Notes: generated by a model from the letters alone, not told the origin. Positions 2,339 to 8,018 are shown, counted from the stretch's first letter. The stretch is 64,000 nt of DNA from Escherichia coli (GCF_048403405.1 NZ_CP183129.1); one strand, 5' to 3'. Numbers and translations are program-made.

Positions 2339-2541
2339 AACCTCACTCCCAGCGGACGACGGCGACGGCGGGTTGTCCCCAGTACCAACTCAGCATCATT
2401 GATCGCACGGTTAAGCTCATCCAGAGAGGCCGCCGTATATTCAATTCTTCGTCCATCTTTCTGGACAGACACCACCCGTTTACCGGTTAATAAATCAAGG
2501 CGCGCCTGACGCAGCGCCTGCAGTTCAGCGACTGTAACCAT
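2335..2541 (-). CDS. Head-tail joining protein (lambda gpW-like)
   Basis: 68-aa ORF between terminase large subunit and portal, overlapping both. Confidence 0.85.
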   Translation of the reverse strand: MVTVAELQALRQARLDLLTGKRVVSVQKDGRRIEYTAASLDELNRAINDAELVLGTTRRRRRPLGVRL

Positions 2542-4453
2542 TCACTCCTCCGGACAGCTTCGCTGCCAGTTCTTTAAGGGTTGGCCGGGTCGTCTCTTCT
2601 TCCCGGGATTTTGCCAGTACAGCCAGATCAAGCTGCCAGCGTTGCACGGACACACGTAATGCCGCGTAGGCATACACCAGGCAGTCCAGCGCTTCGTTAC
2701 GCCGCTTTTTGTTATCCCACAGCAGACGCATCTTTCCTTTTTCCCACTTCTCCACAAGCTCTTCCGCGACCAGTTGCTGCGCCTCTGTCTGCGAAAAAAT
2801 CTCCGGATCATCAGGAAAACGGATGGCATACGACGTGGCTTCATCCGCAGGCGTGGGCTCGGCTTTCATACGGGCATAGAGAATTTCTTTTGCGGTGTCC
2901 GTCCCCACTTCACACAGATAAACGCCCCGCTGATTGCGGGTTTTCGGCATGGTGATCACCGGCTTGCCATAGACAGACGCGCCTTTTACCGGCAGCACAC
3001 GGAAAACACCGTGTTTTTTTGACCTCTGGTAGACGATTTCACCATCGATCCCCCCGGTGTCCCAGCAGACACGGGAAATGGTCATTTCGGTGCCATCCGC
3101 ATGGCGGTATTTTTTGTTGATCGCCGCATCCACACGTAACAGCGTCTCTTCCTCATCAGGACGCCCCATAATGATGATTTTATCCACCAGAAAAGCTTCC
3201 TCTCCCGGTGCCCATCCCCAGACATACATCTCAAAACGGTTTCGCTGCGAGTCAATGCCCGCCGTCAGATAAACCACCCGGGCAGGCACCGCCGCCGTGT
3301 AACGCACAACCTTATCCATCAGCACCTGGTGATCGAGTTTTTCGCCCACGGCCTCTTCCCAGGTCTCGCCCAGCGTGGTGTTCACAAAGGTTTTCAGGCC
3401 GTTGGGATCTTTCAGTGCATCCAGCCAGTCATAGACTATCTGTACCCAGGTGGTGAACGGACTGTACGCTGTCCAGATATGGAACGTGATGGAGCGCGGC
3501 GGCGGAATTTCATTATCCGCGGCGCTGAAAAACGTCAGACCGTCACGGGTCCACATCCCCGTGTTTTCACAGATCCACCGCCCGTTGCTCTGGTCAAGCT
3601 CAGACTGATGGATCACGCAGCCATGATGTTCACAGAGGTAGAAAACGCTTTCGGGGCTGTCCTTCTCCCATTTAAGGCCAAAAGGCGTGGATTCATCGCC
3701 AAATTTCAGATACTGCTCCTCCCCACAGTGTGGGCAGGGCACATAAAAACGCATGAAATGCGCCGACTCGTTGGCCGCTTTTTCGATCTGGCAGGTGCCT
3801 TTGATTTTAGGCGTCGAGCCGCGAATGGATTTGGGCCATACAGAGCCCTCAATACGTTTATCCCCAAGCAGGGTTGGCGAACCCTCTTTTTCGACATCCG
3901 GTTCGAACGAGGAAAGTTCGTCATAGCAGACCACGTCCACGGATTTTTCACGGTAGTTTTTGGCGGCAGCGCCGCCCAGGCACCAGAAACCCACACCCGA
4001 TGAAAAGCGTTTCAGCGTGAGGGTATTGTCACGATGTTTACGCCCCAGCCATGGAAAAAGGTCTTTCAGACATGGCACATCCCGAATCGTCGCCTCCACG
4101 TGAGACTTCATAAAATCTTCAGCGGCAGAATCCGTGGGCTGAAAAAGCAGACTGTTTCGGGATTTATGCTCAATAAAATACCCGACCACCCCCAGCAACA
4201 TCTTTGTATAGCCAACACGGGCAGATTTAATCAGATTAACAGTCCGGATCTGATCATTCCCCATGCTGTTCATGATGGCGATCTGGAACGGCAGCGTTTT
4301 CCATTCTCCCTCACCATATGAAGATTCTTTAGGCAGATAATAATTTTGATCAGCCCATTCAACTGGCGTCACCGGCAATGCCCTTATCAGGGGCTGTAAT
4401 GCTGTTGTGACAGCACTCATCATATTATTCAGTTGTTGCTCTGATATATTCAT
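2525..4453 (-). CDS. Terminase large subunit (lambda gpA-like)
   Basis: ORF track 2525..4510; start moved to ATG at 4453 (MNISEQQL...) by similarity to lambda A N-terminus; conserved WADQNYYLPKES, KSARVGYTKMLLG motifs. Confidence 0.9.
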   Translation of the reverse strand: MNISEQQLNNMMSAVTTALQPLIRALPVTPVEWADQNYYLPKESSYGEGEWKTLPFQIAIMNSMGNDQIRTVNLIKSARVGYTKMLLGVVGYFIEHKSRNSLLFQPTDSAAEDFMKSHVEATIRDVPCLKDLFPWLGRKHRDNTLTLKRFSSGVGFWCLGGAAAKNYREKSVDVVCYDELSSFEPDVEKEGSPTLLGDKRIEGSVWPKSIRGSTPKIKGTCQIEKAANESAHFMRFYVPCPHCGEEQYLKFGDESTPFGLKWEKDSPESVFYLCEHHGCVIHQSELDQSNGRWICENTGMWTRDGLTFFSAADNEIPPPRSITFHIWTAYSPFTTWVQIVYDWLDALKDPNGLKTFVNTTLGETWEEAVGEKLDHQVLMDKVVRYTAAVPARVVYLTAGIDSQRNRFEMYVWGWAPGEEAFLVDKIIIMGRPDEEETLLRVDAAINKKYRHADGTEMTISRVCWDTGGIDGEIVYQRSKKHGVFRVLPVKGASVYGKPVITMPKTRNQRGVYLCEVGTDTAKEILYARMKAEPTPADEATSYAIRFPDDPEIFSQTEAQQLVAEELVEKWEKGKMRLLWDNKKRRNEALDCLVYAYAALRVSVQRWQLDLAVLAKSREEETTRPTLKELAAKLSGGVNGYSR

Positions 4454-4934
4454 CGAGTAAATCCGGTAATTTATCCCCCGCCCGCGCACACTGATTTGCC
4501 CCCTTCGCAATAAGGGTTTTCAGATGGTCAAGATGGCGCGGTGTTAAATCAGGAAACTGTCGCTGCATGGATAAAGGGATGGAATCAAGCGTACTGGATA
4601 ACGCCATTGCCAGCTTGCTGAGGGCAAAAATACAGAACCCGGTATCAATAAGTTTTCCTTTTGACACCTCATTTTTTAACTGCTGTGTAACAGCCTGTTC
4701 TGCTGTCAGTTCCCATCTGGCAATAAGCAATTTCTCCTCATAGTCGTCTTCGCTATCGCCATCAGGCACATCGTTTTTACTTCTTCTCAGATACGATATG
4801 TAAAAATCGCGCCAGGCATCCAGATCCAGTTGCCCTCGCTTATTCGATATCGGGGCACCCGGCAATTTCTGCAATCTGCGAAGCTGGCGATCGGTCAGAC
4901 TTAAATGCCTGGCAACTTCAGTCTGCGTAGCCAC
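4425..4934 (-). CDS. Terminase small subunit (lambda Nu1-like)
   Basis: 169-aa ORF, GTG start with upstream GAGGTGAGGA; C-terminal half resembles Nu1 (…PLSMQRQFPDL…RHLDHLK…). Confidence 0.8.
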   Translation of the reverse strand: MATQTEVARHLSLTDRQLRRLQKLPGAPISNKRGQLDLDAWRDFYISYLRRSKNDVPDGDSEDDYEEKLLIARWELTAEQAVTQQLKNEVSKGKLIDTGFCIFALSKLAMALSSTLDSIPLSMQRQFPDLTPRHLDHLKTLIAKGANQCARAGDKLPDLLDEYIRATTE

Positions 4935-5129
4935 TCCTCACCTCGCAAAAACTCTCACTTCACAATCACAACAAAACCGGTCATGTCCGGCTTACATGTC
5001 TATTTTTTGTGCATGTCCGGTTCACAGAAGACCTCTTTTTTTATTTTTCATATAGTTAACTTGAAGAGAAACCGGACATGGTTCCCGGAAAATTTTCATA
5101 AATAGCGAAAACCCGCGAGGTCGCCGCCC
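4935..5129. other. cos site: cosN cohesive end at 5118..5129 (AGGTCGCCGCCC, revcomp GGGCGGCGACCT) with cosB-like region toward Nu1
   Basis: 5101..5129 is the reverse complement of the lambda left-end sequence GGGCGGCGACCTCGCGGGTTTTCGCTATT; immediately upstream of Nu1. Confidence 0.8.
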
Positions 5130-5277
5130 CGTAACCTGTTGGATCGACGGAAAGGACCCGAAAACGAGAATAATTATCACTTACAGCAAGAATCGAATCT
5201 GATCTATTATGGTGCTTGCTATTATGTGCCGGCACAAGTGCGTCGTTTACCGTCATTTCACACAGAGGCATCATCAA

Positions 5278-5529
5278 ATGAAAATCAGAAATATTCTCGC
5301 TATCTCCCTTGCAACATCATCCTTCAGTTGCCTGGCATTTAAATCCTCGCCCAATGTGCTACCAGGACCAACGAATCAACTAACTGCGGTAGAAAGTAAA
5401 ATTATCGGACATTTTTATGCCCCACACAGTGCATTACCCGGAACAACCATCACAGGGACATGTGACGCCTCCCCCGTCCCGGGATGCACCTGTCCGTTTT
5501 GTACTATGCTGCGTAGCCAAAACCGATAA
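5278..5529 (+). CDS. Hypothetical small secreted Cys-rich protein (83 aa)
   Basis: ATG at 5278 after AGAGG; N-terminal signal-like MKIRNILAISLATSSFSCLA; CDASPVPGCTCPFC cluster; AT-rich; opposite strand to late operon. Confidence 0.3.
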   Translation: MKIRNILAISLATSSFSCLAFKSSPNVLPGPTNQLTAVESKIIGHFYAPHSALPGTTITGTCDASPVPGCTCPFCTMLRSQNR

Positions 5530-5590
5530 CATCCGCATTTACCTGGTATTACATGATGAGTTCACGCAGCGACTGATAGAGGAAGGAAAG

Positions 5591-5770
5591 ATGGTTAGTA
5601 AAAGCAAGGCGCATTGCCGCCGCATGCTGCAGGCATTGCAACAGACGAGAGCAGGTATTTTTGACCAGTTGGAAAACTGCCAGCATACTTTGCCCGAGTA
5701 TATCGCCATCTCATCGGAAACCAGTGCAACTCTTATTCATCGGGTTCCACCAGAGAAAAAGAAGAAATGA
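5591..5770 (+). CDS. Hypothetical small protein (59 aa)
   Basis: ATG at 5591 preceded by GGAAGGAAAG; no recognisable homology. Confidence 0.25.
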   Translation: MVSKSKAHCRRMLQALQQTRAGIFDQLENCQHTLPEYIAISSETSATLIHRVPPEKKKK

Positions 5771-5892
5771 ACAGTGAGGCGTTGTGTGGCATACAACGCC
5801 TTCTTCCATCATTCCTCGTCAGCCATGACAAAAATATAACCGCTGGCTCTTTCATTTTTCTCCTGCGTCCAGCCCCTCTCTACCTGGAAGCA

Positions 5893-6219
5893 TCAAGGAC
5901 GTGACGGCGTAAAGATAAATTGTCTCTTCACTCCCTGACAGGGGCGATTCTTTTCAAATCGCCATTTCGCCATGGCCTTCACCACTTCATCACGAAACAA
6001 ATTATGAGGCTCTGAGCGGAGAAAAACGATCCGTGTCACAGTCCCATCAGCACCAATATCGAACTTAACCTCAACCAGCCCCTTGATATAATTTGCTGCA
6101 GCATATTCCGGATATCGTGGATACACCGTCACTAATTGCCGGGGCTCATCAGCTTTTTGCTGCGAGCATCCCACTGCCAGGACAGATAACAGAAAAAGTA
6201 GTAAAAGGCGTCTTTTCAT
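5893..6219 (-). CDS. Lipoprotein with TonB C-terminal domain
   Basis: Start ATG 6219 after AGGAAT; lipobox LAVGC; …YPRYPEYAAANYIKGLVEVKFDIGADGTVTRIVFLRSEPHNLFRDEVVKAMAKWRFE aligns with TonB C-terminal domain. Confidence 0.75.
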   Translation of the reverse strand: MKRRLLLLFLLSVLAVGCSQQKADEPRQLVTVYPRYPEYAAANYIKGLVEVKFDIGADGTVTRIVFLRSEPHNLFRDEVVKAMAKWRFEKNRPCQGVKRQFIFTPSRP

Positions 6220-6529
6220 TTTTATTCCTACGGGTCTTATTCTGACAATATATCCTGTGTTCCAGACTGCCACATCACCACATCCTGTGCCATTATCTGA
6301 CTCACATTACATACATCGCATCGGGATACAGTAGTAGCACTTTCTGTAATACAGCTTCCTGTTTCTTCCACCATCGCACCGGGATAAACCCGCGAATCAT
6401 TAACGCGGTAAAAACCCGGTGTGCATCGTTTTTAATTATCCCCGCACACTCGCGCAGAGGAGTCTCCCTGTCGGGCTGCGGTCTCTGTTAATGAGGGAAT
6501 ATAGCGACGATACGGCGCATCAACAAAAC

Positions 6530-7003
6530 TTATTTCAGGCACTGAGTGCGGATATAGTCCTGTGCCCCTTCCAGTTGCTTGTGCATCGTCATCAGCCGCT
6601 CTCTGAGGGTGAAATAATCCCGTGTAACGGTGTCTGCCAGTTGGGGGCCGGTTGCATTATCCACGCCGGAGGTGGTGGGGGCTTCACGCACGGAGCCTGG
6701 ACAGGTGGCGTTGATCCGCAGGCGCTTACGACCAGCGGCAACGTCAGCGCGAAGAGTTTCATTTTCAGCTCTCGCATCGGCTAATTCCCTCGAGTATTTT
6801 GCATCGAGCGCAGCAACATCGCGCTGGCGCACCTGCATATCAGTAATGGTTGCGTTCGCCAGCTTCAGTTCACTGGCTTTGTTATCGCGCTGCGCTTTGT
6901 AGGTAATCGCGTTATCACGGTAATGGTCTGTTGCCATCCACAGCGCACCACAGGCCACCAGCAGAATAACGATAAACGCGGAAAGCATTCGGTTTATGTT
7001 CAC
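6530..7003 (-). CDS. Rz i-spanin
   Basis: 157 aa; [14 protein letters not shown]…DYFTLRERL…QLEG matches lambda Rz. Confidence 0.9.
6592..6777 (-). CDS. Rz1 o-spanin lipoprotein, embedded in Rz in +1 frame (true start probably internal MKLFALTL)
   Basis: [10 protein letters not shown] lipobox and [14 protein letters not shown] proline-rich motif as in lambda Rz1. Confidence 0.8.
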
Positions 7004-7131
7004 CCCAGCAACCCCGACGAAGACAACATCATCCAGGCCATGGAAAGAAAAAGAGCAACCAGCATTAGTGAAAATGAAATGCCGACAATTACACAGAGGA
7101 TCTTCGCCAGCGTTATGAGTTTGTCTGACAT
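7000..7131 (-). CDS. Hypothetical single-pass membrane peptide (43 aa)
   Basis: ATG 7131 preceded by AAGGGAGGA; stop overlaps Rz start (ATGA); hydrophobic core [26 protein letters not shown]. Confidence 0.45.
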
Positions 7132-7145
7132 GCTTAATCCTCCCT

Positions 7146-7328
7146 TCACGATTTCAACGCAATGACCAGTTTTGCCAGCCCATACAGCATCGGGGACACA
7201 GCAACACCGACCGCCACCCACTTAATGGCAAAAGCCAGTGCTCTGCTGATGTCATCAGTTACAGGCGCTTTCAGTTCAAGGCCATTTTTCATAGTCAACC
7301 TCAACAGAATTCGTTTACACTTCGCCAT
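7146..7328 (-). CDS. Hypothetical small protein with C-terminal hydrophobic helix (60 aa; alternative start at 7292)
   Basis: ATG 7328 preceded by AAGGGAGA; ends 14 nt before next ORF; …[27 protein letters not shown]. Confidence 0.45.
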
Positions 7329-7484
7329 GTTCTCCCTTGCCTTACTCAAGGTCAGAAACACAAAACCTCGCTTGGTGCCAACAAACGGGGTTTTTACTTT
7401 TATTCACTTACGTTTCGCCAGTTCGCAGGATTTCGTGTTATCCGCCCGCGTGGCCATTCCTCATTTTTCAGCAAAATATTCTGC

Positions 7485-8018
7485 TTATCTGTCGATACCC
7501 CAGCACGCCAGCGCGCTCTCCTGGTCACGACGGGATACCTGACCGTAACAGTTGTTTGAACGAATACGGCAGTCTCTGCCACCGTCCTTAATCCACCAGC
7601 GAATCGCTTCGCAGGCACCTTTTCGATCACCAGCATTAATTCGTCTGTAAAACGTCGACGGGAAACACTTACCGGGATCAATGTTGTACGGACAGAATGA
7701 CGCGATCCCCGCTTTCTGGGGTTCGGTCAGCGGCACTCTGATGTTTTTCTCCACCCACGCCAGCGCTTTATCACGCTCAATGGCGTTAACCTGGTCGCAT
7801 TTTTCCTTCGACAACTTCATGCCCGGAACGACAGGTTTGCCATCCACCATGATGGCACCACGGCAGATGGTCCAGATACCTGCACCATCACGGTATGCCG
7901 TGGTGTGGTTGCCTTCCTTTTCATCCAGAAACTGGTCGAGAATGTCAGGCGCAGGCGCACCAGCGGCAATCAGCGCCAGAACGGCAGCCGACAGGCCGTA
8001 TTTGATTTTGGTGTTCAT
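7485..8018 (-). CDS. SAR endolysin (T4-lysozyme-like, phage 21 R type)
   Basis: N-terminal hydrophobic SAR segment YGLSAAVLALIAAGAPA; E-x8-D-x5-T catalytic spacing in EGNHTTAYRDGAGIWT. Confidence 0.85.
   Translation of the reverse strand: MNTKIKYGLSAAVLALIAAGAPAPDILDQFLDEKEGNHTTAYRDGAGIWTICRGAIMVDGKPVVPGMKLSKEKCDQVNAIERDKALAWVEKNIRVPLTEPQKAGIASFCPYNIDPGKCFPSTFYRRINAGDRKGACEAIRWWIKDGGRDCRIRSNNCYGQVSRRDQESALACWGIDR

Follow-up and report, generated by a model that had tools for sequence, protein, structure and literature searches.

A 64,000-nucleotide (nt) stretch of the Escherichia coli genome GCF_048403405.1 (NZ_CP183129.1), referred to here as the window, contains the late region of a lambdoid, phage-21-type prophage on its minus strand (2525–8018). 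Immediately beyond cos, in a segment spanning 5130–5890, lie two small open reading frames (ORFs) on the plus strand, opposite to the late operon with Nu1 and terminase A: ORF83, which encodes an 83-amino-acid (aa) precursor and reads away from cos, and the 59-aa ORF59. Both had been singled out in an earlier note as possible secreted or periplasmic conversion factors, and its description of the ORFs was confirmed. The two start at 5278 and 5591, each is preceded by a plausible ribosome-binding site (RBS), GAGG 9 nt before the ATG of ORF83 and AGGAAGGA before ORF59, and ORF83 combines a signal-peptide-like N terminus with a cluster of four cysteines at positions 62, 70, 72 and 75 (C-x7-C-x-C-x2-C). 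The surrounding sequence, described in that note as AT-rich, is so only mildly, with a G+C content of 0.42 at 5000–5450, 0.48–0.50 over most of ORF83 and ORF59, and 0.45–0.57 in neighbouring genes. Here we report that ORF83 is a real, conserved gene under purifying selection that has been missed by most annotations.

A search of 5.8 billion proteins revealed full-length ORF83 homologs of 82–84 aa and 54–72% identity in E. coli TA464, Klebsiella, Citrobacter and Salmonella enterica subspecies salamae, indica, arizonae and diarizonae, to which a separate genome scan added an ortholog from Buttiauxella. All ten orthologs, from five genera, are intact, with lengths of 83–84 aa. Nucleotide alignment (blastn) of the window with ten diverged loci was confined to 5270–5531, that is, to ORF83 and its RBS, and the (A)TCATCA(A/G)ATG context flanking the start is conserved in the orthologs together with the RBS. 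An extended 106-aa form beginning at an ATG at 5209 was rejected, because the extension is unconserved and the conserved RBS and ATG are those at 5278. In the codon alignment of the ten orthologs, the ratio of non-synonymous to synonymous substitution rates (dN/dS, NG86 method) was 0.09–0.39 where it could be estimated, with synonymous sites largely saturated (proportion of synonymous differences, pS, 0.15–0.89, mostly 0.5–0.9), and variable columns were distributed 45/40/79 over codon positions 1/2/3. Shifted-frame controls yielded median ratios of non-synonymous to synonymous differences (pN/pS) of 1.1–1.7, the exception being 0.36 for the antisense frame with the same wobble position. In each of the ten orthologs the sense frame is open and every other frame is interrupted at least once by a stop; the 83-aa frame is also open in every one of 16 E. 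coli haplotypes drawn from 41 loci. Conserved so deeply and under purifying selection, ORF83 is far more than a chance ORF. Two Logan contigs of 85–88% identity (L055 and L056) were discarded as diverged copies: their dozens of scattered 1–3-nt insertions and deletions, found even at the ORF83 start codon, most likely represent long-read assembly error, and the proteins called from them (P0043 and P0044) are artefacts. Frameshifted fusion proteins with breaks at homopolymer runs (P0030, P0004 and P0038) were also set aside.

The opposite reading, that both ORFs are non-functional, non-coding filler beside cos, could draw on the lack of an ORF83 call by RefSeq or PGAP in any of five genomes inspected and on its atypical codon usage (log-likelihood ratio, −0.045 per codon). 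The codon-usage measure was uninformative, the doubtful ORFs scoring 0.08–0.23, and for ORF83 the reading is refuted by cross-genus conservation in unrelated contexts, low dN/dS, similarity bounded by the ORF and a stop-free sense frame; we consider it extremely improbable. In the eight records inspected, those of phage 21, of PhiR47_2 and of six E. coli genomes in RefSeq, ORF83 is never annotated.

The ORF83 precursor begins with MKIRNILAISLATSSFSCLA↓FK, where the arrow marks the predicted cut, and inspection of this sequence against the Sec rule identified MK(I)R as the n-region, ILAISLATSSF as the h-region and C-L-A↓F at the cleavage site. In a 30-sequence family alignment A20 and F21 are each conserved in at least 90% of members, most of which read A-x-A↓FQ, and F is the invariant first mature residue in 38 sequences. 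The −3 position is occupied by Ala in the wider family (A-x-A↓F(Q/K)) and by Cys18 in the enteric and phage branch (SFSCLA↓FK). Conservation across the family favours cleavage by signal peptidase I before F21. We also considered that the product of the enteric and phage branch might be an outer-membrane lipoprotein acylated on C18, with a Bor-like role in serum resistance, exclusion or adhesion. The ...LATSSFSC stretch fits a loose PROSITE-style rule (small or hydrophobic residues at −4 to −1, S or G at −1), C18 is conserved in at least 90% of the enteric branch, where S17G substitutions keep the rule, and Bor and the adjacent TonB_C protein are lipoproteins. One UniRef entry is even named 'Lipoprotein', because SFSCLA fits the loose lipobox rule. 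Against this fate, position 18 is Ala in the wider family, which yields a classic A-x-A↓F signal peptidase I site with A20 and F21 as the conserved residues; moreover, the lipobox has no Leu at −3 and there is no homology to Bor. We therefore regard acylation as improbable and prefer an exported protein cut by signal peptidase I.

ORF83 belongs to an uncharacterised family with a shared set of conserved residues. C62, C70, C72 and C75 are invariant, and A20, F21, Y47, G60, P66, G69, L78 and R79 are near-invariant. Two profile searches, one of them against 1.84 billion cluster representatives, together with a metagenome scan brought the family to more than 100 clusters. Its members are approximately 80–85 aa long and are all labelled 'hypothetical', 'uncharacterised' or 'secreted protein'. 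Every named member belongs to the Enterobacterales (Citrobacter, Salmonella, Klebsiella, Serratia, Erwinia, Pantoea, Rahnella, Phytobacter, Superficieibacter, Dryocola and Buttiauxella). Neither ORF83 nor ORF59 matched a Pfam family at E ≤ 1, and no Pfam or NCBIfam family was found for any of 30 family members, the single chance-level Pfam match being HMBD (E = 0.5) in one of the 30. ORF83 has no PHROG, a PDB profile search returned only a chance match to the streptavidin signal peptide, and neither the gene nor the family was described in the literature searched. AlphaFold2 models of the full-length and mature protein, built from the 30- and 38-sequence alignments, were of low confidence (pLDDT 58 and 62) and contained only a helix at residues 32–47 and a short C-terminal helix. 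Separately, we noted long, low-complexity, eukaryote-like proteins (P0095 and P0097, also P0104) with four to five repeats of P[IL]PGCNCPKCT[NE]LR; these repeats carry the same G-C-x-C-P-x-C-x-x-L-R motif as the ORF83 C terminus, which suggests that the motif may be an autonomous mini-module.

ORF83 is a stand-alone unit that moves among contexts. The segment 5130–5890 and the right end of phage 21 (OL657228), one of the classical lambdoid phages, agree at 99.7% identity. The segment was found in 1,222 of 5,426 complete E. coli genomes (approximately 22%; minimum coverage, 80%) and in seven phage records, among them phage 21, ev017, Perceval and three PhiR phages. ORF83 adjoins cos in two prophage types, that of the window and the TA464 type (L010), in which a 72%-identical allele occupies the same place with different neighbours; lambda and DLP12 have the first ~56 nt beyond cos in common with the window and no ORF83. 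Set between cos and the genes for lysis and accessory functions, and present in only some of otherwise similar phages, the gene behaves as a moron would. A 64%-identical allele is carried by 66 Klebsiella plasmid records, mostly conjugative and mostly without annotation of the gene (for example, CP032834, pINF237_01-VP, 107717–107968; one is named as a virulence plasmid), where it follows a decayed cos/cosQ remnant and adjoins a Fur-family repressor and a CobW-type gene. In an islet of S. enterica subsp. salamae (L007, 1–10252) the homolog lies between a SPATE autotransporter/PPC-domain protein and genes for bor, an omptin and a NEL-type E3-ligase effector, and another homolog lies in a region of S. 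enterica subsp. enterica that resembles a mobile element. Homologs at ordinary chromosomal sites are known from Citrobacter, Buttiauxella, Serratia and others. As a side observation, a near-perfect Fur-type palindrome, TGATAAAAATTATCA, precedes bor in the salamae islet. The proposal of the earlier note that the ORFs specify secreted or periplasmic conversion factors remains a reasonable label for ORF83, because the gene is genuine, occupies a moron position, encodes a conserved predicted signal peptide and four-cysteine segment, and has homologs that travel with virulence and conversion genes; for ORF59 the label is unsupported.

The DNA upstream of the chromosomal homologs suggests a link of the family to zinc. 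A Zur-box core, TGTTAT-N3-ATAACA, is matched at 10–12 of 12 positions within 150 nt upstream of the gene in 13 of 14 chromosomal lineage representatives (shuffle p from <0.0002 to 0.036), with ggAATGTTATTTTATAACAgt, ATAATGTTATTATATAACAat and ttATGTTATTTTATAACAtc as examples; the remaining upstream DNA is unrelated, and at most chromosomal loci there is no divergent gene that would share the box. The Zur-box consensus, AATGTTATAWTATAACATT, and its overlap with the −10 element have been documented experimentally for Yersinia pestis (PMC2706843). Furthermore, lineage L110, which matches C. koseri, carries genes for AztD (PDB 6cmk, E = 1e-286) and for a protein of the ZnuA family next to the homolog, and in lineage L131 a FUR-family gene is divergent upstream and AztD and AztC homologs lie downstream. 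These surroundings correspond to the zinc-homeostasis neighbourhoods published for aztD, of which Fur, ZnuA and CobW are typical; the passages on gene neighbourhood in that paper name only the ZnuA, ABC-transporter, Fur and CobW families, with no mention of the small gene (PMC6689063).

No Zur box was found in any of the mobile-element copies scored, namely those of the window, two TA464-type prophages, a Klebsiella plasmid, two Salmonella islet representatives and the S. enterica mobile region, which match the core at 7–8 of 12 positions (p > 0.5). In the aligned mobile upstream regions the left half of the box persists (cTATTATgtg in the window and cGTTATgtg in Klebsiella) and the right half is gone, a pattern suggesting that the −10 element was retained and repression by Zur was lost. 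We also observed a perfect 12-bp palindrome, TGTGCCGGCACA, at 5225–5236, 42–53 nt before the ORF83 start and invariant in 16 of 16 haplotypes, whereas the corresponding position of the TA464-type allele holds another palindrome, of the 7-4-7 type, GTTACGTgttaACGTAAC. Both may be replacement operators, or nothing.

The second ORF is probably not a conserved gene and is indistinguishable from a chance ORF. Diverged homologs of ORF59 were not found: whatever matched the 117-aa and 59-aa frames was either a near-identical copy from E. coli or came, with a broken frame, from noisy contigs. In haplotypes 12–14 a 1-nt insertion behind codon 5 shortens the product to 24 aa, and this group was seen in a metagenome viral contig as well as in at least 23 complete E. 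coli genomes. Across codon positions 1/2/3 the ten ORF59 substitutions divide 4/3/3, with no excess at the third position. Conservation of the frames in relatives, proposed in the earlier note as a check on both ORFs, is seen for ORF83, intact in ten orthologs and all haplotypes, and not for ORF59. Annotations of this part of the segment disagree, even on the strand, and their ORFs are mutually exclusive. PGAP calls ORF59 in some genomes (WP_000253883.1) and elsewhere, in near-identical segments (L002 and L060–L063), a 60-aa minus-strand ORF or a 48-aa plus-strand ORF together with a 40-aa minus-strand ORF; the CPT annotation of phage 21 has two minus-strand ORFs (window 5504–5686 and 5733–5855), and that of PhiR47_2 has 5226–5342 and a 117-aa plus-strand ORF. 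The 60-aa minus-strand ORF contains a premature stop at 5551 in the window itself, the 40-aa one loses its start codon in haplotype 15, and neither has a third-position bias.

Downstream of ORF59, where the plus-strand unit converges with the TonB_C gene of the opposite strand, lies a stable hairpin; its folding energy is −18.5 kcal/mol (z = −2.9) for the plus strand and −19.5 kcal/mol (z = −3.1) for the minus strand. A consensus terminator scan did not call it; it is best read as a candidate bidirectional terminator, and 5530–5802 is better read as lineage-specific sequence ending in this hairpin. ORF59 itself may be a lineage-specific young gene or an untranslated 3′ part of the ORF83 transcript. 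The rival view holds that ORF59 is also real, co-transcribed with ORF83 up to the terminator and encoding a small basic cytoplasmic protein specific to phage-21-type phages. We give it about one chance in four as a young, dispensable gene, because of its strong RBS and a stop 6 nt before the hairpin; it also has a PGAP call, matches a PHROG of its own (PHROG 4843, function unknown) and is intact in 13 of 16 haplotypes. The frameshifted genomes, the even spread of substitutions over codon positions and the restriction to near-identical copies speak against it, as do the overlapping minus-strand ORFs called by CPT and PGAP, which are also broken in some haplotypes.

Taken as a whole, the locus is best explained, and we think rather probably, by a moron, ORF83, from a family of zinc-starvation-linked exported four-cysteine proteins, next to an ORF59 that is not a conserved gene. 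We propose that the moron, with cos on one side and the lysis and accessory genes on the other, would be translated into a precursor with a Sec signal peptide that signal peptidase I would cut after A20. The mature form of 63 aa, periplasmic or secreted, would contain one amphipathic helix, as predicted, and end in a knot of the four invariant cysteines. Because chromosomal members stand directly behind a Zur operator, and some stand beside zur, aztD or aztC, the family most likely comprises zinc-starvation-induced periplasmic accessory proteins. The four cysteines might bind zinc or another thiophilic metal, or might form two disulfides. The mobile branch, which includes phages, plasmids, islands and the window, has lost the right half of the operator; the prophage would then express the gene without control by Zur, as a conversion or fitness factor, and a lysogen could then gain in fitness or virulence under metal restriction by the host. 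Export, the cleavage site, a metal or disulfide role, the promoter and the benefit to the lysogen are all predictions from sequence. A periplasmic role in zinc or thiophilic-metal handling through the four cysteines is plausible, if somewhat short of an even chance. More speculatively, the family might represent undescribed Zur-controlled exported mini-proteins that act in periplasmic metal capture or hand-over (for example, to AztD/AztC or ZnuA) and that have been repeatedly captured by mobile elements, stripped of the operator and expressed constitutively, in about 22% of complete E. coli genomes and from Klebsiella plasmids, as a conversion factor against nutritional immunity; we consider this broader scenario unlikely, at roughly one chance in four.

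Several observations weigh against this explanation. In the periplasm, cysteines are usually found oxidised as disulfides, an argument against a four-cysteine zinc site, and the low-confidence AlphaFold models provide no structural support for a metal site. The ORF83 copy of the window matches the Zur core at only 7 of 12 positions (p = 0.94) and so has no Zur box, and a consensus promoter scan found no convincing sigma-70 promoter for it: there is no good −35 element and the TATTAT hexamer was not called. The PROSITE-type lipobox (SSFSC) of the enteric branch makes a lipoprotein fate conceivable, and the 13 polymorphic sites of ORF83 within E. coli fall 5/1/7 on codon positions, only a weak bias. 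For ORF59, the strong RBS, the location just before the hairpin and a site diversity (6.1%) as low as that of ORF83 point the other way, as do the three synonymous against three non-synonymous changes in haplotype 15.

The same four cysteines allow a different product, a secreted, disulfide-knotted effector peptide (a toxin, antimicrobial, signalling or host-interaction peptide) with no metal role, for which the Zur boxes would use zinc starvation as a cue of the host environment. Four invariant cysteines in an exported protein are most simply two disulfides, the layout of signal peptide, variable linker and conserved Cys-rich C terminus recalls the pre-pro form of heat-stable enterotoxin precursors, and relatives are associated with virulence genes in Salmonella and with Klebsiella plasmids, one of which is named as a virulence plasmid. 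Yet no similarity to toxin or bacteriocin families was found in Pfam or NCBIfam, the cysteine spacing differs from that of STa, STb and EAST1, no processing, export or immunity genes travel with the relatives of ORF83, and the zur and aztD/aztC genes found alongside it in two lineages favour a role in zinc physiology itself. An effector peptide has, in our estimate, roughly one chance in four, and the zinc-starvation-linked family remains the preferred reading.

The cohesive-end sequence cosN marks the end of the phage genome, and the phage 21 record terminates at this position; the packaging-termination subsite cosQ, which is annotated at the homologous place in OL657228, is reported to be highly conserved (PMC4669245). 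The bor gene of phage 21 is absent from the prophage of the window. Between Rz and cos, on the strand of the late operon, a gene for a TonB_C-domain lipoprotein of 108 aa (signal ...LAVGC) is common to phage 21 and has been annotated elsewhere as 'partial tonB-like protein of CP-933N'. A scan of 4800–6400 against Rfam produced a single match, a chance mir-483 hit on the hairpin (E = 0.88).

Table 1. Coordinates of ORF83, ORF59 and surrounding features in the window.
Feature	Position	Strand	Basis or remark
Terminase A	2525–4510	−	Late operon
Nu1	4425–4934	−	Late operon
cosN, 12-nt cohesive-end sequence AGGTCGCCGCCC (reverse complement of GGGCGGCGACCT)	5118–5129		Read from sequence; marks phage genome end
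cosQ (AGGACCC), packaging-termination subsite	5153–5159		Annotated cosQ at homologous place in OL657228
Fur-box-like palindrome CGAGAATAATTATCA	5165–5179		12/14 to the 7-1-7 consensus TGATAATnATTATCA
Putative −10 of ORF83 (TATTAT), aligned with ancestral Zur-box left half	5220–5225	+	Upstream alignment; weak, inferred
RBS of ORF83 (GAGG)	5265–5268	+	9 nt before ATG
ORF83, 83-aa precursor of a small exported four-Cys protein (export predicted)	5278–5529	+	Orthologs, dN/dS, frame integrity
Signal-peptide codons 1–20 (MKIRNILAISLATSSFSCLA)	5278–5337	+	Predicted signal peptidase I cut between A20 and F21
Four-Cys segment C-x7-C-x-C-x2-C-x2-LR, codons 62–79	5461–5514	+	Family alignments
RBS of ORF59 (AGGAAGGA), strong	5580–5587	+	Read from sequence
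ORF59, 59 aa, doubtful ORF	5591–5770	+	ORF present; gene status poorly supported
Stable hairpin between convergent plus-strand unit and TonB_C gene	5776–5802		Candidate bidirectional terminator, weak U-tracts
TonB_C-domain lipoprotein gene	5893–6219	−	Pfam PF03544, E = 7e-13
Rz/Rz1	6530–7003	−	Late region
Endolysin	7485–8018	−	Late region

A Fur-box-like palindrome lies 5–6 bp past cosQ. In the window it matches 15 of 19 positions of the 19-mer (5160–5179; shuffle p ~0.001–0.004), and the perfect 14/14 form, TGATAATnATTATCA, occurs in lambda (NC_001416, 48452–48466), in DLP12 (locus L068, ~1537–1551) and in the TA464-type prophage (locus L010, ~4866–4880). A role of this box as a specific regulator of ORF83 was dropped, since lambda and DLP12 carry the palindrome and lack ORF83; it is, for the same reason, part of the conserved cos-proximal DNA, where it could be a Fur site, a packaging-related element or a case of chance conservation. 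No description of this palindrome was found in the papers on cos that were consulted.

These findings bear on how the segment is annotated and on what it may do for its host. ORF83 is the one well-supported gene in a segment carried by so many complete E. coli genomes, yet it is missing from the RefSeq annotations inspected, in which weaker ORFs are called instead. Its family lacks a curated description, and the Zur boxes and the aztD and zur neighbours yield the concrete hypothesis that a small protein not described before takes part in zinc starvation. Every mobile copy examined has lost the operator, which would make the moron an example of rewiring after capture. If the product does help lysogens against the withholding of zinc by the host, ORF83 would represent a conversion factor that is widespread in E. 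coli and on Klebsiella plasmids and has been overlooked.

Comparison with known systems makes ORF83 a moron of the bor kind by position and behaviour, though not a homolog of Bor or Iss. The earlier note had likened the ORFs to the bor-type conversion genes of lambda, a comparison that holds for position and fails for sequence. Similar to bor and other morons, ORF83 occupies the niche between the lysis genes and cos, opposite to the late operon, is small, predicted to be exported and variably present among related phages, and has a homolog directly beside a bor homolog in the Salmonella islet; it differs in having no sequence relationship to Bor or Iss (no Pfam match, PF06291, Lambda_Bor, included) and in probably not being a lipoprotein. 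With the periplasmic zinc proteins ZinT, AztD and Zcp/DUF4198 the family shares a signal peptide and, in its chromosomal members, a promoter Zur box of the gamma-proteobacterial type, and in two lineages it lies beside aztD/aztC and a Fur-family regulator. Unlike them, ORF83 is much smaller (63 aa when mature), shows no sequence or confident structural similarity and, in its phage copy, lacks the Zur box; its candidate ligands would be four cysteines rather than the His/Asp/Glu sites of ZinT or AztD.

The precursors of STa, STb and EAST1 resemble ORF83 in being short, with a signal peptide, a variable middle and a Cys-rich C terminus, and in residing on enteric mobile elements. ORF83 was nevertheless rejected as a heat-stable enterotoxin, with no family match and a different cysteine spacing (C-x7-C-x-C-x2-C, compared with six cysteines in STa). 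Its conserved helix and ...LR tail have no counterpart in these toxins, and the family includes chromosomal, housekeeping-type members behind Zur boxes. Finally, by analogy with MerP-type proteins, ORF83 may be a small exported protein whose cysteines could stay reduced and bind a thiophilic metal, although it has neither the HMA fold nor the GMTCxxC motif of that group.

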